The notes below the pieces were generated by a model. The model had not been told where the DNA came from. It worked only from the letters and a program-made list of their open reading frames with translations, and did not search any database. A DNA stretch of 64,000 nt, from the NCBI RefSeq assembly GCF_024502345.1, contig NZ_JALDNN010000001.1; one strand, given 5' to 3'. The position numbers were made by a program, and so were the translations under genes. Every line of letters starts with the position of its first letter. The first letter of the stretch is position 1. Origin of the DNA: Escherichia coli. Its GTDB lineage: Bacteria; Pseudomonadota; Gammaproteobacteria; Enterobacterales; Enterobacteriaceae. This document shows positions 49,617 through 59,122 of this stretch, one piece after another.

Positions 49617-50013
49617 TCAGAAGGTTTCCCAGTTCTCGCTGGCGTGTTGTTCCGTTTCACGAACGGACTTTACCGCTTTAACCTTACTCTGCGGGCTGGT
49701 GTTGCTGATTGTCGGTACTATGGTATTTTTTCGTTCAGCATCGCGTTTTTTATTATCACGGAGACGAAATACGCTCACCTTCTCCTGCAGAATCCGTGAC
49801 TGATTCTGCAACGAAGCGGCAGTGGCTGCAGACTGTTCCACCAGAGCTGCATTTTGTTGGGTGGTGCTGTCTATCTGGCCCACGGCGCTGTTAATCTGGG
49901 CAATACCATCTCCCTGCTCACGACTGGCCTTGGCTATTTCGTCAATCAGCCCTTCCATGCTCTGGACGTTACTGATGATATCCTCCATTCCCCTGTCTGC
50001 TTTTTCAACCAGG
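49617..50013 (-). pseudogene. methyl-accepting chemotaxis protein, 3' fragment truncated by IS1
   Basis: Encodes the MCP signalling-domain C-terminus ending in the CheR-docking pentapeptide NWETF; upstream part replaced by IS1. Confidence 0.7.
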
Positions 50014-50689
50014 GTACTGACGGGGTGGTGCGTAACGGCAAAAGCACTGCCGGACATCAGCGCTATCTCTGCTCTCACTGCCGTAAAACATGGCAACTGC
50101 AGTTCACTTACACCGCTTCTCAACCCGGTACGCACCAGAAAATCATTGATATGGCCATGAATGGCGTTGGATGCCGGGCAACCGCCCGCATTATGGGCGT
50201 TGGCCTCAACACGATTTTCCGCCATTTAAAAAACTCAGGCCGCAGTCGGTAACCTCGCGCATACAGCCGGGCAGTGACGTCATCGTCTGCGCGGAAATGG
50301 ACGAACAGTGGGGATACGTCGGGGCTAAATCGCGCCAGCGCTGGCTGTTTTACGCGTATGACAGGCTCCGGAAGACGGTTGTTGCGCACGTCTTCGGTGA
50401 ACGCACTCTGGCCACACTGGAGCGTCTTCTGAGCCTGCTGTCGGCCTTTGAGGTCGTGGTATGGATGACGGATGGCTGGCCGCTGTATGAATCACGCCTG
50501 AAGGGAAAGCTGCACGTTATCAGCAAGCGTTACACTCAGCGCATTGAGCGACATAATCTGAATCTGAGACAATATCTGGCAAGGCTGGGACGGAAGTCAC
50601 TGTCGTTCTCAAAATCGGTGGAGCTGCATGACAAGGTCATCGGGCATTATCTGAACATAAAACACTATCAGTAAGTTGGAGTCATTACC
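50014..50689 (+). mobile_element. IS1, 5'-truncated copy (lacks left inverted repeat and start of insA)
   Basis: Match to IS1 begins inside insA (TACTGACGGGGTGGTGCGTAACGG) and continues to the right end ...GAGTCATTACC at 50689. Confidence 0.85.
50171..50674 (+). CDS. insB: IS1 InsB
   Basis: 167 aa, a few substitutions relative to the 27476..27979 copy. Confidence 0.85.
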
Positions 50690-50781: not shown

Positions 50782-52044
50782 CTATTTTAATGGATTGTTA
50801 ATCTTTGCATATTCAAACGGACTGATACCCTTCTCCCGGTTCGCATCCAGAAAATCGGCCCACCATTGCAACATCAGTCGCCGTTCTTCCAGATGTTCTG
50901 CTTTATGGATATACGCAGCACGTACACCATTACGCTCCTGATGGCTCATCTGACGTTCCACAGCATCGCGGGACCACAAACCTGATTCAATCAATGCACT
51001 GCACGCCATCGCCCGGAATCCATGGCCACAGACTTCCTGGGTTGTGTCATACCCCATCACCCTCAGGGCTTTATTTACAGTATTTTCACTGATTGGTTTA
51101 CGCGGGTCATGTGCACCCGTAAATATCAGACCATTTTCACCTGCCCATGTCTGAAGTTCTGTCAGTATGGCTACAGCCTGTTTGCTGAGTGGCACAAGAT
51201 GTGGTGTTCGCATCTTGGAGCCCCGGTGTGAGAATTTTACGCCGGGCAGAGGTTCGCGTTCGGCTGGAATAGTCCACATGGCATTGTCAATATCAATTTC
51301 AGACCACCGGGCGTATCTGAGTTCACTGGAACGAATAAAAACCAGTAAATTCAGCGTAACGGCAAGCTGGGTGACAGGTTGCCCCTTGTAACTGCTAATA
51401 CGCGACAAAAGTTCAGGCAGGCGAGAAAGATCAAGAGCGGGGCGATGCTGGCGTTTTACAGTGGTCAATGCGCCAGCCATATCCAGAGCAGGATTATATC
51501 TGATGATGCCAGACTGTACGGCATAACGCATTACAGCAGATATTCTTTGCTGCAGACGACTGGCGATTTCATAAATTTGTTTAGCTTCTGCGGCACGAAC
51601 AGGGATAAGCAGGTCCGGGGTACGGAGTGTTGTGATATCCCGGTTGCCGATAAAGGGGAAAACGTGTGTCTCGAGGCTTTTGAGTACTTTATCGCTGTGT
51701 GATTGTGCCCATTGTTTATTACTGGCATGCCAGCGTCGTGCAATATGTTCAAAAGAGAGTTGTAAATCAGGGACTACTTTTTTAGCTCTTTTTTGTTCGC
51801 AAGGGTCAACCCCCTCCGAAATCAGTTTTCGGGCCTCATCCCGTTTTGTACGAGCTTCGGAGAGAGAAACTTCCGGATACACACCAAGTGCCAGGGTTTT
51901 CTCCTTACCCAGAATACGATAACGGAGACGCCAGTAACGGGAACCATTAGGATGAACCAGCAGGAACATGCCGGCCCCGTCAGTGAGTTTATAAGCCTTG
52001 TCAGTGGGCTTTGCAGCCCGGATTTTTGCGTCAGTCAGTGCCAT
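50782..52044 (-). CDS. P4-type tyrosine integrase (tRNA-associated genomic island integrase)
   Basis: 420 aa, MALTDAKIRAAKPTDKAYKLTDGAGMFLLV... N-terminal arm-binding domain and catalytic R..HGFR..Y core; adjacent to a tRNA-Phe 3' fragment. Confidence 0.85.
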   Translation of the reverse strand: MALTDAKIRAAKPTDKAYKLTDGAGMFLLVHPNGSRYWRLRYRILGKEKTLALGVYPEVSLSEARTKRDEARKLISEGVDPCEQKRAKKVVPDLQLSFEHIARRWHASNKQWAQSHSDKVLKSLETHVFPFIGNRDITTLRTPDLLIPVRAAEAKQIYEIASRLQQRISAVMRYAVQSGIIRYNPALDMAGALTTVKRQHRPALDLSRLPELLSRISSYKGQPVTQLAVTLNLLVFIRSSELRYARWSEIDIDNAMWTIPAEREPLPGVKFSHRGSKMRTPHLVPLSKQAVAILTELQTWAGENGLIFTGAHDPRKPISENTVNKALRVMGYDTTQEVCGHGFRAMACSALIESGLWSRDAVERQMSHQERNGVRAAYIHKAEHLEERRLMLQWWADFLDANREKGISPFEYAKINNPLK

Positions 52045-52241: not shown

Positions 52242-52290
52242 TGGTGCCCGGACTCGGAATCGAACCAAGGACACGGGGATTTTCAATCCC
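52242..52290 (-). repeat. 3'-terminal 49 nt of tRNA-Phe (island attachment-site repeat), not a complete tRNA gene
   Basis: Minus strand reads GGGATTGAAAATCCCCGTGTCCTTGGTTCGATTCCGAGTCCGGGCACCA, matching the anticodon-loop-to-CCA part of recalled E. coli tRNA-Phe; match stops abruptly at 52290. Confidence 0.75.
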
Positions 52291-52567: not shown

Positions 52568-52906
52568 CTAAAATAGCCGAGCAGCAAACGCCAAAACAAC
52601 AATACTGACATTACCATTAACTGTCGCGATAGTTCTGAGTCGGTCGTCTTTCAGGGTTTTACCGTCAAATGTTGCGATGGTGCGGAGTCGATCGTCTTTC
52701 AGGGTCTTTCCATCAAAGGTAGCGATGGTGCGGAGTCGGTCGTCTTTCAGGGTTTTACCGTCAAAAGTTGCGATGGTTCTGAGCCGGTCGTCTTTCAGGG
52801 TTTTACCGTCAAACGTTGCGATGGTCCTGAGTCGATCATCTTTCAAGGTCTTGCCATCAAAGGTCGCGATAGTCCTGAGTCGATCGTCTTTTATAGTTAC
52901 GCTCAT
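52568..52906 (-). CDS. tandem-repeat protein: five identical 16-aa units (KDDRLRTIATFDGKTL) plus a degenerate sixth
   Basis: 48-bp DNA units differ from each other only at synonymous positions; AGGAGA SD before the second ATG; about 215 bp downstream of hsdR on the same strand. Confidence 0.6.
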   Translation of the reverse strand: MSVTIKDDRLRTIATFDGKTLKDDRLRTIATFDGKTLKDDRLRTIATFDGKTLKDDRLRTIATFDGKTLKDDRLRTIATFDGKTLKDDRLRTIATVNGNVSIVVLAFAARLF

Positions 52907-53127
52907 AAGCATTCTCCTGTGATACGTCCGTTCAGCACTTTACCATCCAAAATAAAGCACTGGTTTCTGTAAGTTCTGGGCGCTAATCATTTGAATATGC
53001 GTTTAAAATCCATCCAGTTAGCATTAACATTAACCAGCGCTTCATCGATCATAACAGGTCTGATGCAGGTTAAAAGATACAATCTTACCTATAAATTGCG
53101 GTAGCGCATTGCTCTGTTATCTGGCAT

Positions 53128-56100
53128 CTAGAGGTGCCCTCCAACCCCTTTAAATTTTTCGATAAACGCCCCAATTTTCTGGAATACGGTCTGCTTTTTC
53201 GTTTTGTACTGAGGATTCAGCGGACTGAGCTTTGGTAGCGTCTCATTTAGCTCAGTGCCATTTTCGGTAGCATACTCCCGTTTGAGTGATGTGCGGATAT
53301 AGCGCCTTGCAGCCTCTTCATTGAGGTTTTCTTCCTTAATCAACGCCTCTGCTTCCCGTTGCTGTTCACGCTGAGCATAGGTAAAGAATGCATCAATGAT
53401 ACTGGCCTTGTCCGGCATGTCATCAAGGTTAGTTTGCTGAATAAAGTCAACAATCAGACCTTCTTTGGCACGGTTGCCCAGACTTGAGCGGATTAAGCGT
53501 CTGACCTCTTCAGTCAGGGCTTCTTTACCTTTTTTCTCTCTGTTGTGGTCGAAAATCAGGCCAAGGATGTAATCCAGGTTAATTTCCTGCGACTTCAGCA
53601 GGTCAATTTCAAACACCACGTCATCCCAGTCTGTGGTTGATTTATCCCTGTCGTTTGATGCTTTTTCGCGTCGCTGCCAGTCCCGGATATCATTGTATGC
53701 TGAGCGATAGTCCTGAACTTTACGTTCTGCCGGGAGACGAATGGTTTGTAATTCAGCAAATTTTTCATCATCCACATAGTGCTCTGCTTTAAAGGTTTCT
53801 ACCGCTTCCGGGTCACTAATATCAACCTTCTGCAGGGCTTTCAGCGTGGCAAATTCATCATAGTTTTGCAGGATGTTTTCTGCCCGCAGATATTCACCAA
53901 ACAGTTTGACGAAGGCTTTTTTCTCTTTTTCACTGTCGATACTGGCAGGGTCAGGGAAGCGCTGCTCCAGCTCCGAAACAACAGCCATAAAACCTCGTTT
54001 AGCCTCACCGGTTGCCGCATCGGTAAAGCCCTGCATGTACTCTTCGTAGCTTTTTTCCAGCACCACATTCTTGGTGTTTTTGTCGCCAAAAAGTGTGATG
54101 GCATCAATGGTCGGACGCTCCAGGTCCCTGAAAGTCACGATATTGCCGAAGGTTTTGGTTGCATCATAGATACGGTTGGTGCGTGAGAATGCCTGCATCA
54201 GACCGTGATAACGCAGGTTTTTGTCAACGAACAGAGTATTGAGCGTCGGGGCATCAAAGCCGGTTAAGAACATTCCCACCACGATGAGAAGGTCGATATC
54301 CTGATTTTTCACTCGTTGAGCTAAATCGCGGTAGTAGTTCTGGAAGCCGTTACTGTCGGTACTGAAATTGGTTTTAAAGTGGTTGTTATAGTCATCAATG
54401 GCTGAATCCAGGAATTCCTTTGCGCTGCTGTTCATTGCGCTGGTATCAAAGCTTTCGTCAGTAATATCACCAATGGCGCTTTGCTCTTCATTAGCAGCAA
54501 AAGAGAAGATGGTTGCCACACGAAGACGTTTATAGCTGCCAGATTTCTTCTCAGCTTCTTCCTGTAGCATTTTAAATGTCGTGTAATAAGCTTTTGCCGC
54601 GTCCACGCTGCTCACTGCTAACATGGCATTGAAGCCTTTTGCTCCCGGGAAGGTACGATGCGTTTTCTGGCGGAAGTTATTGAGAATGTATTGCGTTATT
54701 TCCTGGATACGCAGTGGGTGCAGAAAGGCCTGCTGGTTTTCAGCCGCGCTGAGTTTTTTCTCGTCTGTTTCCGTTTCAAGGGACTTAAACTGTGGGCGGA
54801 CATCGTTATAGTCCACCTTAAACTTCAGCACTTTTTCATCACGAATCGCATCAGTAATTACGTAAGAATGTAATTCACGCCCGAAGACGCTGGCGGTGGT
54901 TTCTGCCCCCAGTGCATTTTCCGGGAAAATAGGCGTACCGGTAAAACCAAACTGATAAAAGCGTCTGAATTTCTTTTTGAGGTTTTTCTGGGCCTCACCA
55001 AACTGGCTGCGGTGACACTCATCAAAGATAAACACCACCTGCTGCTGATAGACGGGCAGGTCAGCTTCGGCTTTCATCAGGTTATTGAGTTTCTGAATGG
55101 TTGTGACGATAATTTTGTTATCGTCCTTATCCAGGTTTCTTCTGAGGCCAGCTGTATTATCCGAACCATTCACACTGTCCGGAGAGAAGCGCTGATACTC
55201 CTTCATGGTCTGGTAATCGAGGTCTTTCCTGTCGACCACGAAGAAGACTTTATCAATAAAGTCCAGCTCGGTTGCCAGTCGTGCGGCCTTAAAACTGGTC
55301 AGGGTTTTTCCTGACCCTGTGGTATGCCAGATAAACCCGCCGCTTTCGGGTTTTGACCAGTTCTTCGCTTTAAAAGAGCTGTTGATTTTCCAGAGAATGC
55401 GCTCAGTGGCCGCTATCTGATAGGGACGCATGACCAGCAGTGTCTGGCTGCTGTCAAACACGCTGTAATTAAACAGAACATTCAGCAGGGTATGCTTCTG
55501 GAAGAAAGTGGCGGTAAAGTCCTTCAGGTCCTTTATCAGGGTGTTATCCGATTTCGCCCAGTTCATGGTGAAATCAAAGCTGTTTTTATCCCGCTTAGTG
55601 GTACTGGCAAAGTACCGGGTATCAGTCCCGTTGGAAATCACGAAGAGTTGCAGGTATTTAAACAGGGAGTTATCGCTGTTAAAGCTTTCCTTGCTGTAAC
55701 GGTGTATCTGGTTAAAGGCTTCACGAATCGCCACGCCGCGCTTTTTGAGTTCGATTTGCACCAGTGGCAGGCCGTTGACCAGAATGGTGACGTCATAACG
55801 GTTAGCGTGTGAGCCGGTCTGCTCAAACTGCTGAATGACCTGCACCTTATTGCGCAGCAGGTTCTTTTTATCTATCAGATAGATGTTTTCCAGACGACCA
55901 TCATCAAACGTAAAATCACAGATATAGTCGATATGGATTTTACGGGTTTTGTCCAGGCTGCTGTCACTGGGGCTGTCCAGATACTGCTCTGCGAAGCGCC
56001 GCCATTCACTTTCGTTAAACTCCACACCATTAAGACGCTGAAGCTGGTCCCGCACATTCGCCAGCATCGCAGTCGGTGACTTAACGGAGATAAACTCATA

Positions 56101-56244
56101 CCCCTGATTAAGAAGGTCCTGAATCAGCTCCCGCTCAAGGTCCAATTCGCTCTGGTAGCTGTCACCGGTATCCATAACTTTTGTGTATTTATCAAGGACG
56201 ATAAAGTTATTGGATTCAGCAATGGTGTGTGTCTGTTGTGTCAT
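53128..56244 (-). CDS. hsdR: Type I restriction enzyme R subunit (Type IC, EcoR124-like)
   Basis: 1038 aa; Walker A GSGKT, DEAH-box [10 protein letters not shown]-terminus [20 protein letters not shown] resembles recalled EcoR124I HsdR. Confidence 0.9.
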
Positions 56245-56360: not shown

Positions 56361-57569
56361 TCAGTTGCTAGTTGTTTCGTGCTTCGGGAAGCTGAACAAC
56401 AAGTCGCGATAGTACTCGTACTGCTTCTGGCGTAGTTCTATTTCACGGGGTAAGCCTTCGGTGATAGAGCTTGTTAATGTGTCGAATTTATCGAGTATGG
56501 TGACAATCCTAACTTGCTCTGACTTTGAAGGGATTGGTAGTAAAAGGTCCTCCATTTGTTTTTTGGATACGGCAGGAATACCTCCTTTCTGCTGAATACC
56601 CGTTAATTTGGTCTCGGATTGTTTCAGATAGTAATAGACATACATCCAATGCAACTGTTCAGTGCTTCTAACAGAGATGGAATAGCAACTATTGCCTGCC
56701 CAGTAAGGAGTGGAACTCTTATTTACAAATCCTGCATTTGCTCCACGCGCACTCACAATAATCTTATCGCCATCATTGTTGAAGTCTTCGTAGTAACCTG
56801 TAGGAGTCCGCCCTCCGTTGTAGACCGGATAATCTGCGTCAGGATTCTGCTTGTCCTTACGGACAAACGCACCAATTGTAATTATTGCTACTTCCCCCAG
56901 ACTCTTCCACTCAACACTCCCCCCCTCAAAACTCAGCAATTGGTTACGATAGTAATTGTACTGCTTTTTACGCATGGTAAGCTCAGCTGTAAGCTCAGCT
57001 GTAAGAGCAGTAAATTTATCCAGAATTCGGACGATTTCAGACTGGATGGTCAGAGACTTTTCAGGATTTTCCGGGCAAGGAATGGGGGCTTTATATGCTG
57101 AAATCATTTGAAGATTCAGCCCACCACGCCCGCTGTTCCCAGATGATATCTGACGTAGATTATCATACTGGGTTTCCAAAAAGTGGAAAATATAATCTGA
57201 ATTGATCTTCCGCTCATCAAATGTAATGGCTGCAAGTGATTGATTGGTGGTTAATTTAATGCGGGTTCTTGCTACTTTACCACGAGTTTTACCCTGACCT
57301 GCTAATGCCATAACAATGGAATTTTCAGGAACAAATTTAGCACTTGAGTTATTTAATCCATCCTCAGTAATGAATGTCTCAGTTTCTTTGATGGTTTTTA
57401 AATTTACTTCACCTGAACTCATCCAGGGGATAGTTCCATGCTCCCAATATTCTGTTTTTTTAGTATCAGGGGTGCCACCAGAATAAATTTTTTTTGCAAC
57501 CTTACCGAGAGGGAACCACTCAACCTCAATCCCCTCCAGCAGTTTTTCCAGATAATTTAGCTTACTCAT
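56361..57569 (-). CDS. hsdS: Type I R-M specificity subunit (Type IC), two TAEL repeats in the central conserved region
   Basis: 402 aa; conserved central ...[27 protein letters not shown]... and C-terminal ...[37 protein letters not shown]; 4-bp overlap with hsdM. Confidence 0.85.
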
Positions 57570-59122
57570 GCCTGCGCCTCGTAGCCTTCAATTTCTGCCA
57601 CAATCGCATCAATGTCTTTGCGTAACTGGTCGATTTTGCTGACCGTGGTTTTAAGCTCAACATTCAGTTCGGTGATATCGACGATTTCACGGGTATCTTT
57701 TGCTTCGACGTAGCTACTGACAGACAGATTGTAGTCATTACCAGCAACAGTCTCTAATGGCACCGTTTTCGCCAGATGGTCAGTATCTGCCTTACTGTTG
57801 AACACATCCATAATCTGCTTAATATGACCATCAGTCAGGATATTGTTATTGGTTTCTTTCTTAAACAACCCGCTGGCGTCAATAAACTGAACGCGGGTAT
57901 CTGTTTTGTGCTTGGACAACACTAGTATGTTAACGGCAATGGTGGTGCCGAAGAACAGATTTGGTGCCAGAGAAATCACCGTTTCAACATAGTTGTTGTC
58001 GACCAGGTACTGGCGGATTTTCTGCTCTGCTCCGCCACGGTAGAAAATACCGGGGAAGCAAACTATTGCTGCACGCCCTTTAGCTGACAGGTAGTTTAGT
58101 GCATGTAGCACAAACGCAAAGTCAGCTTTTGATTTCGGGGCCAGTACGCCAGCAGGAGCAAAGCGCTCATCGTTAATCAGGGTCGGATCATCACTACCAA
58201 TCCACTTAACCGAGTACGGTGGGTTAGAAACAATCGCATCGAACGGTTTTTCATCGCCAAAGTGAGGCTCAGTCAGGGTATTCCCCAACCTGATATCAAA
58301 CTTATCGTAGTTGATGTTGTGCAGGAACATATTCATACGCGCCAGGTTAAACGTCGTATGATTTATCTCTTGTCCGAAAAAACCTTCTTCAATGATATGA
58401 TTATCAAAGTGCTTCTTCGCCTGAAGCAGCAGTGAGCCAGAGCCTGCGGCAGGGTCATAGATTTTGTTGACGTGAGTCTGACCATGCATCGCAAGCTGAG
58501 CAATCAGCTTAGAGACGTGCTGTGGTGTGAAGAACTCCCCGCCAGACTTACCGGCATTCGCCGCATAGTTTGAAATCAGGAACTCGTAGGCATCACCGAA
58601 AAGGTCAATCTGGTGCTCATTAAAATCCCCGAGCTTTAGCCCCTCAACGCCTTTCAGAACGGCAGCGAGGCGGCTGTTTTTGTCTTTGACGGTGTTACCC
58701 AGTCGATTGCTGGTCGTATCGAAATCGGCAAACAGACCTTTGATGTCGGCCTCAGACGGATAGCCGTAGGCAGAGCTTTCAATAGCGACGAAGATACTGT
58801 TTAAATCAGCATTCAGCCTGTCGTTGGTGTTCGCTTTAGCGGCAACGTTGCAGAACAGCTGGCTCGGATAGATGAAATAGCCTTTAGTCCTGATGGCATC
58901 ATCTTTGATGTCATCGGTAATGATGCTGTCATCAAGTGCTGCATAATGTATGCTCTCATCCCCTGCTTCCATGTAGCTGGAAAAATTCTCACTGATGAAG
59001 CGGTAGAAAAGGGCACCGAGTACATACTGTTTAAAATCCCATCCATCTACTGAGCCCCTGACATCATTGGCAATGGCCCAGATTTGACGGTGTAGTTCTG
59101 CACGTTGTTGAAGACTGGTCAT
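57566..59122 (-). CDS. hsdM: Type I R-M N6-adenine DNA methyltransferase subunit
   Basis: 518 aa; catalytic NPPY motif (SNPPYS) and AdoMet-binding region [10 protein letters not shown]. Confidence 0.9.

Follow-up and report, generated by a model that had tools for sequence, protein, structure and literature searches.

What does a gene encode whose consecutive 48-bp units specify exactly the same 16 residues in different codons, and does it belong to the restriction-modification (R-M) operon beside it? The gene in question occupies positions 52568..52906 on the minus strand (339 bp, stop codon 52568-52570) of a 64,000-nucleotide stretch of Escherichia coli contig NZ_JALDNN010000001.1, referred to here as the window, and is supported by the list of open reading frames (ORFs), by Pfam and by RefSeq. 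A preliminary inspection of the letters alone, the sequence-only reading, had assigned the array to an unrecognised repeat family. That family can be named: the protein matches Pfam PF21785, and RefSeq already calls it '5-fold beta-flower protein'. We put at roughly 0.75 the probability that the gene is a functional protein-coding member of the beta-flower family, its identity and its evolutionary mechanism taken jointly.

The product, 112 amino acids long, consists of MSVTI, five copies of KDDRLRTIATFDGKTL, a sixth, degenerate unit KDDRLRTIATVNGNVS and a hydrophobic C-terminus, IVVLAFAARLF. On the minus strand, the five full units span 52652..52891 (52891-52844, 52843-52796, 52795-52748, 52747-52700, and 52699-52652). 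The sixth unit (52604..52651, minus strand) shares the first ten codons of the repeat, after which an NGN turn leads into the C-terminal helix, whose codons lie at 52571..52603 (minus strand). Tandem Repeats Finder reports a period of 48 bp with 5.9 copies at 52611-52891; it also proposes a 144-bp super-repeat, for which the distances between units give no support. An 81-residue ORF on the plus strand (52677-52922) was rejected because its units vary in amino acids.

Among the five full units there is not one amino-acid change, and their DNA differs pairwise at 4-10 positions (mean 7.1); the sequence-only reading had noted about six per unit. The variable columns, 12 of 48, comprise ten third codon positions and two first positions (Arg CGN/AGR and Leu CTG/TTG), all of them synonymous. 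In the ORF frame, the Nei-Gojobori method yields a proportion of synonymous differences (pS) of 0.54, a synonymous divergence (dS) of ~0.96, and a non-synonymous divergence (dN) of effectively zero, the 0.6 'non-synonymous' differences arising solely from CGC<->AGA two-step paths. When units are compared frame by frame, only this frame is synonymous throughout; each of the other five gives five different peptides. The extra codon variants of the window array number 16 synonymous and 0 non-synonymous (P ~3.6e-10), against a chance expectation that 25.7% of random single-base changes in the window array are synonymous. Pooling ten alleles gives 25 synonymous versus 3 non-synonymous codon variants (P 2.5e-12), so that homologous loci do hold a few replacements between units and the synonymous excess stands all the same. 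Amino-acid perfection is confined to the window allele and its nearest relatives; other alleles carry GKAL, GKSL, GKIL, KNDR, or KDER in single units. No known non-coding repeat family underlies the array: Rfam has no match there at E<=1, and the array folds no better than shuffled sequence (z = +1.48). The codon pattern thus marks the minus-strand frame as the real coding frame under strong purifying selection, as the sequence-only reading had proposed. Its argument against a non-coding array or recent slippage survives for the window allele, which is neither. It does not extend to the whole clade, where unit number varies and some arrays hold DNA-identical units, which implicates slippage or unequal recombination as well.

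The identity of the product emerges from profile and structure searches, which the sequence-only reading had called for. With hmmscan, PF21785 (Bflower_2) matches residues 6-104 over model positions 3-101 of 112 (i-Evalue 5.2e-11, 42.8 bits); the authors of the family generally included sequences from 27 bits (PMC10584680). PF21785 belongs to clan CL0395, together with Tubby C-terminal domains. A scan of the protein against NCBIfam returned only noise (sex-lethal, DpdF, E>0.03), and since NCBIfam gave no match, the RefSeq name is probably derived from Pfam. Durairaj et al. (Nature 2023, PMC10584680) first described the beta-flower fold, assigning it no function and giving no genomic context. 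In it, short hairpins with Phe tips and loops rich in Arg and Lys form a shallow, symmetric barrel; 4-, 5-, and 6-fold variants occur, a [DNEQ]xxG motif is semi-conserved, and in many cases the barrel encloses a C-terminal hydrophobic helix (PMC10584680).

An AlphaFold2 model built from a 21-sequence family alignment is consistent with this architecture (predicted local distance difference test, pLDDT, 84.1; predicted template modelling score, pTM, 0.67); prediction from the single sequence was poor (pLDDT 48.7). The model contains 12 strands, each 3-5 residues long, and a helix that spans residues 102-111. Six hairpins of the form T[IL]KDDRLRTIAT[FV] follow one another in structural register, connected by tight FDGK turns. 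In the model there are six structural hairpins, and the earlier count of five units with a partial one after them differs only in phase. One rim of the modelled ring displays six F-D-G-K turns and the other six D-D-R-L-R loops, amounting to twelve arginines. The predicted structure is a small, closed barrel, 12 short strands in all, together with a hydrophobic helix at the C-terminus; because many beta-flowers enclose a helix of this kind, it is probably not a membrane anchor. Foldseek retrieved 207 matches from AFDB50 at E<=1e-3, with template modelling scores of 0.85-0.91 to small proteins annotated as uncharacterised, 'MORN variant', or 'cell wall-binding'. These are the labels reported for beta-flowers (PMC10584680).

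Other collections added little. The sole PDB sequence match below 1e-3 is the designed repeat protein SAKe6AE, in which no single stretch is significant, and we judged the relationship to be repeat-periodicity noise. PHROGs gave many weak whole-protein E-values and no significant single stretch, which we took as a repeat artefact, and giant repeat proteins from a representative-library search were of doubtful relevance and were not used. A word-indexed homologue search lacked the exact protein in its collection and returned mostly mis-called or frameshifted ORFs. Phage genomes (searched by tblastn), IMG/VR viral contigs, and BFVD structures contain no relatives, and the gene is therefore not phage-borne.

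The annotated gene begins at the second of two in-frame ATG codons. The longest ORF, 52568..52912 on the minus strand, is present in the window's ORF list and opens at an upstream ATG (52910-52912) that abuts a Shine-Dalgarno sequence, AGGAGA (52913-52918, minus strand). The ATG at 52906 is almost certainly the true start, judging from sequence, because it is preceded by AGGAGA at a distance of 6 nt, most orthologues have ATA in place of the first ATG, and RefSeq annotates 339 bp; the Shine-Dalgarno sequence is conserved in the orthologue comparison. The length is accordingly 112 residues, neither the 113 given previously nor 114. An identical protein, WP_023293487.1, is named '5-fold beta-flower protein' in E. 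coli 2017.17.01CC (locus L001). In the window gene, 11 of 13 Arg codons are rare in E. coli (CGA five times; AGG, AGA, and CGG twice each). CGA at unit codon 4 is retained in 21 of 23 distinct units, with other synonymous sites free to vary; its retention may reflect selection on the codon itself, for instance for a pause at each hairpin, or no more than a foreign origin.

How the array evolves can be read from its orthologues. An 801-bp query covering the region matches 50 of 5,426 complete E. coli genomes, and each time hsdR is present too. More widely, the gene sits ~220 bp after a Type IC (EcoR124-family) hsdR in E. coli, three Enterobacter species, Pseudocitrobacter, and metagenomes. The hsdR proteins of these islands are 98-99% identical to that of the window. 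The hsdR-linked arrangement recurs in 8 independent records, and one distant island keeps it with an hsdR only 83% identical in DNA. The window-type clade is rare, since a scan of one genome each for 100,044 species recovered just 10 loci. Megablast with the 801-bp query listed 1-8 'places' per genome; the multiple places are probably shifted self-alignments of the tandem units, not extra paralogues. Two listed single-place genomes correspond to a 4+1-unit allele and to one partly covered match.

Repeat number varies among these orthologues, and the encoded proteins carry 3, 5, 6, or 7 hairpins, or petals. Counted as full plus terminal units, alleles of 2+1 (64 residues; L006, L030), 4+1 (96 residues; L010), 5+1 (112 residues; the window and most others), and 6+1 (~128 residues; Mixta) all sit behind hsdR genes 96-98% identical in DNA. 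Across genera, the first, second, and last units each keep their own synonymous signatures, and interior units have been lost, duplicated, or recombined. DNA identity to the window is 93-96% for the beta-flower gene, compared with 96-98% for hsdR and 90-93% for the spacer between them, so that mutations do not concentrate in the gene. Among three-hairpin alleles, pairwise dN/dS is 0.06-0.19, which argues that the short forms are also under selection.

Deeper lineages separate a frozen scaffold from a changeable loop. The gene on a Klebsiella plasmid (L012) holds four perfect units of KDDRLRTLATFDGKTL, in which all six columns that vary in DNA are synonymous; a gene from a metagenome (L002) is built of KDDHLRTIATFDGKTL units, three of them DNA-identical, which indicates a recent expansion; and in a third locus (L028) the two full units differ by 1 nt. 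Two 64-residue genes have KDRDLR... and KDRHSS.... The amino-acid changes and codon preferences that separate lineages are common to all units of an array, the terminal one included. Across scaffold codons (1 and 7-16), the proportion of non-synonymous differences (pN) between lineages is 0-0.02 at pS 0.4-0.86, the exception being an Ile-to-Leu change in L012 that raises pN to ~0.09 in pairs involving this gene. Loop codons 2-6 (DDRLR), by comparison, reach pN of 0.5-0.6 between lineages, with variants DDHLR, DRDLR, and DRHSS. At L002 (8001-8507), gene calling merged the beta-flower ORF with IS256-like transposase debris lying upstream of it, giving 168 residues.

On our reading, two processes produce this pattern. 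Every hairpin is under very strong purifying selection, leaving the scaffold unchanged even where synonymous sites are saturated. Whole 48-bp units come and go in frame, through slippage or unequal recombination, which yields the natural alleles of 2, 3, 5, 6, or 7 hairpins; the array may occasionally be rebuilt from one unit, after which only synonymous changes would survive. Existing arrays could then be ordered by age, from young (L002, L028) through intermediate (L012) to old (the window, dS ~1). Because the loop alone changes between lineages, and does so in all hairpins together, the ring of six identical loops may be the functional, specificity-bearing face, required alike in all petals.

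The genomic company of the clade extends beyond R-M systems. ColE1-like plasmids of 4.0-4.1 kb from E. coli and Salmonella carry a paralogue (54% identity, 66-112 residues; L011 3237-3575) flanked by mobA and retron Se72, with the reverse transcriptase (RT) gene ~570 bp downstream of it. On 4,261-bp Klebsiella and Serratia plasmids, an unannotated 48-residue remnant 84% identical to the window protein (L013 3993-4142) occupies the equivalent position, preceding a related retron whose effector has a cold-shock domain. On both of these plasmid backbones, which are different, the beta-flower gene directly precedes the retron non-coding RNA region. The two type V retron modules are 80-88% identical in DNA, with homology beginning 45-57 bp after the beta-flower stop, and the beta-flower genes beside them belong to different lineages. 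The literature consulted on retron Se72 and type V retrons makes no mention of the upstream repeat ORF and treats retron Se72 as RT, non-coding RNA, and cold-shock effector. An uncharacterised ORF on the 4,053-bp plasmid was reportedly found by Rychlik and colleagues in 2001 to be needed for the retron DNA product, with phage resistance independent of that product. On 4,773-bp Klebsiella plasmids (L012), the beta-flower gene converges on a radical S-adenosylmethionine (SAM) gene 535 bp away, which matches PADLOC pVip models at E 1e-25 and falls below NCBIfam cut-offs. In L002, the gene follows ~1.2 kb after the Bunzi pair BnzA/BnzB (E 1e-203 and 1e-201). A 2681-bp contig (JGI 3300007505, L028) has a perfect 1,540-bp period, as expected of a tiny circle or a tandem, and carries a 64-residue beta-flower gene as its sole recognisable gene; no RNAI match was found on it. 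Because close relatives adjoin retrons, Bunzi, or a radical-SAM gene, or sit alone on a ~1.5-kb circle, the beta-flower gene is not specific to R-M.

Several observations weigh against the interpretation of the gene as a functional beta-flower in the company of defence systems. Pfam describes PF21785 as five-fold, and the model has 12 strands; since 4-, 5-, and 6-fold variants have been described (PMC10584680), this affects the sub-label and not membership of the fold. In place of the [DNEQ]xxG tip motif, the protein has TFDG in the five full units and TVNG in the last, retaining the DG of the hairpin tip with Thr at position -3. In-frame unit deletions leave the ORF open automatically, which makes the mere existence of short alleles weak evidence of function, and a three-hairpin protein cannot by itself close a 10- or 12-stranded barrel. 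PADLOC-DB 2.0 contains no model for the protein (best match E 0.038, 12 bits), and a weak REase_II match in PADLOC (E 7e-4, 17 bits) concerns the plasmid paralogue only. Distant family members (Succinatimonas L020/L021 and the metagenomic P0047 loci) lie among housekeeping-type genes, their neighbours being tadA, an RhtB-type exporter, dehydrogenases, or a resistance-nodulation-division (RND) pump. Finally, the seemingly independent contexts may share ancestry, as the hsdR-linked loci belong to a single island that is spreading, and the retron plasmids have a retron and replication-origin module in common.

What the protein does is a separate matter from what it is. With no signal peptide, it is probably cytoplasmic. 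It could act as a stand-alone multivalent binder whose ligand might be a membrane lipid surface or a phosphate-rich molecule. As a companion gene travelling with anti-phage cargo on enterobacterial islands and small plasmids, it may have a part in exclusion or defence. A solitary multivalent binding or exclusion factor that travels with defence cargo is a tentative proposal, drawn in part from the modelled geometry, and we consider it doubtful. Still more speculative is the broader version, in which this enterobacterial clade would be a hitherto overlooked factor that excludes or defends on its own, or else would help defence cargo in general. Its ring of identical, lineage-specific loops would serve as a multivalent recognition surface, re-programmed by replacing all petals at once, and petal number could change, through three-petal oligomers, with function retained.

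The main rival holds that the gene encodes a normal beta-flower whose proximity to defence genes is incidental, a passenger with a phage-unrelated role in envelope, lipid, or stress physiology, and we grant it an appreciable, though minority, chance. The housekeeping neighbourhoods of distant members and the lack of a PADLOC match fit this explanation, as do the signal peptides present in many family members (also PMC10584680) and the recent spread of the hsdR-linked loci as one island. It accounts less easily for the presence, on different backbones, of four kinds of known or candidate defence neighbours (Type IC R-M, type V retron, Bunzi, and the pVip-like radical-SAM gene), or for the adjacency to retrons, which persists although the beta-flower genes come from different lineages.

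The sequence-only reading had favoured an accessory or decoy of the Type I R-M operon, and a dedicated accessory, regulator, or decoy of the adjacent enzyme is now an unlikely explanation. Its appeal lies in a constant position behind hsdR, always ~220 bp away on the same strand with no predicted terminator between, across E. coli, Enterobacter, Pseudocitrobacter, and metagenomes, and kept even where hsdR is 83% identical in DNA. Relatives 84-88% identical, however, occur on plasmids without hsd genes, and another lies beside Bunzi. In one locus (L008) the gene is intact and hsdR is reduced to a 225-bp remnant. Moreover, the protein is not acidic, unlike a DNA mimic, and the conserved block ends 1 bp past its stop codon, where other cargo has been inserted.

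Identical units with synonymous divergence are also seen in multi-copy peptide precursors, and the array could in principle be cut or modified into many 16-residue peptides, in the manner of ribosomally synthesized and post-translationally modified peptides or a pheromone polyprotein. The L012 gene does lie near a radical-SAM gene whose best NCBIfam matches include peptide maturases, but all radical-SAM matches fall far under curated cut-offs and the two genes are convergent and 535 bp apart. No maturase, protease, or exporter accompanies the window, retron, or Bunzi loci, the units are not separated by spacers or cleavage motifs, and the protein has both a match to a globular-fold hidden Markov model and a confident barrel model, all of which makes this origin very improbable. 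A non-coding array serving as binding sites, iterons, or an RNA element, or neutral slippage in frame that kept the frame open by accident, would suit a tandem 48-bp repeat of varying copy number in a mobile region, but can be set aside almost entirely in view of the 12 variable columns that are synonymous in one frame only, the dN/dS of 0.06-0.19 between diverged orthologues, the Rfam and folding results, and the conserved Shine-Dalgarno sequence.

The beta-flower gene lies at the edge of a mobile Type IC restriction island. Upstream of it, a 221-nt spacer (52907..53127, minus strand; 90-93% identical among orthologous islands) separates its start from the hsdR stop; the 215 bp reported earlier is the same distance measured from the ATG at 52912. 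A scan of this spacer found no terminator-like or promoter-like site on the gene strand. The hsdR gene (53128..56244, minus strand) is intact, belongs to the Type IC EcoR124 family (PF12008, EcoR124_C), and encodes 1038 residues. At higher coordinates lie hsdS (56361-57569, minus strand) and hsdM (57566-59122, minus strand), which belong to the same Type I system and have amino-acid identities to other islands of 36-47% and 94-97%, respectively. In E. coli 2017.17.01CC (L001 11905-13224), an extra gene for an 'AAA family ATPase', not present in the window, lies between hsdS and hsdR, the position that PrrC occupies in EcoprrI.

On the other side of the gene, the block shared among E. coli islands stops 1 bp past the beta-flower stop codon, which makes this junction a point of cargo insertion. 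In E. coli WCHEC025943 (L036 2808-4819), a pair encoding HrgA and a 5'-nucleotidase is inserted right after the stop. In the window, a 49-nt element at 52242..52290 (minus strand), which we take to be a copy of the 3' end of tRNA-Phe, has no 5' half and adjoins a P4-type integrase gene (50782-52044, minus strand); ARAGORN detected no tRNA gene anywhere in the window. The fragment is probably the remnant of an attachment site between two tandem islands, with the island junction just beyond the beta-flower gene. Orthologous islands adjoin yghD (the pheV site) or cadC (the pheU site). Further along, at 49617-50674, the C-terminal part of a Tsr-like chemoreceptor (ending in NWETF) is cut by IS1, with an insB-like ORF at 50171-50674, and the left part of the window joins the hemB/autotransporter region through insertion sequence (IS) elements. 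These features suggest a heavily rearranged, IS-rich genome.

From the standpoint of genome annotation, the object is an ordinary, already named gene, a member of a known family, and no new family is defined here. Within the literature searched, where no later paper mentioning the beta-flower Pfam families was found, four features appear undescribed: a six-fold architecture that is perfect in sequence and whose synonymous divergence is old, variation in petal number among natural alleles, a scaffold that stays frozen next to loops that change in concert, and the recurrent company of defence systems. The clade offers a handle on the beta-flower fold in E. coli and its relatives, on plasmids of 1.5-5 kb and a Type IC restriction island, with natural alleles of 2 to 7 petals. 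For protein evolution, it is one of few natural closed barrels to pair near-perfect sequence symmetry with old divergence in DNA (dS ~1), as opposed to recent amplification. In the study of phage defence, the gene is a candidate companion adjoining four different kinds of system, and a stand-alone role in defence, if true, would be the first function for the fold.

Compared with known systems, the window protein has no detectable sequence similarity to the other barrels of clan CL0395, the Tubby C-terminal, LURP-one-related (At5g01750), and phospholipid-scramblase-like domains, and is about half their size. The Tubby-like clan is characterised by 12 strands around a central helix and by phosphoinositide or lipid binding. 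Beta-flower strands and loops are much shorter than those of these barrels, and their topology is circularly permuted (PMC10584680). With the beta-flower families (PF21785, alongside PF21784 and PF21786), the protein shares short antiparallel hairpins, a DG-type turn, Arg/Lys-rich loops, Phe tips, and a C-terminal hydrophobic helix. It departs from them in having six sequence-identical hairpins, whereas typical members have diverged units, in a petal number that is polymorphic between strains of its clade, and in lacking a signal peptide or lipobox.

In its evolution, the array resembles polyubiquitin, whose identical units are joined head to tail and diverge synonymously, a pattern explained by purifying selection together with the birth and death of units. 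Both have identical or near-identical amino-acid units, strongly differing synonymous sites, and a unit number that varies between lineages. Ubiquitin units, however, are cleaved to monomers, whereas those of the window protein are predicted to be hairpins of one folded domain, and the loop of the beta-flower unit changes between lineages, in concert. Recently amplified beta-propellers likewise have near-identical blades, usually near-identical in DNA as well since the amplification is recent. Like these propellers and designed symmetric proteins, the beta-flower is a closed beta architecture built of repeats, with near-perfect symmetry and repeat-number variants that may still be able to assemble. 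Unlike amplified propellers, it has another fold and much smaller units of 16 residues, which in the window have diverged to a dS of ~1.

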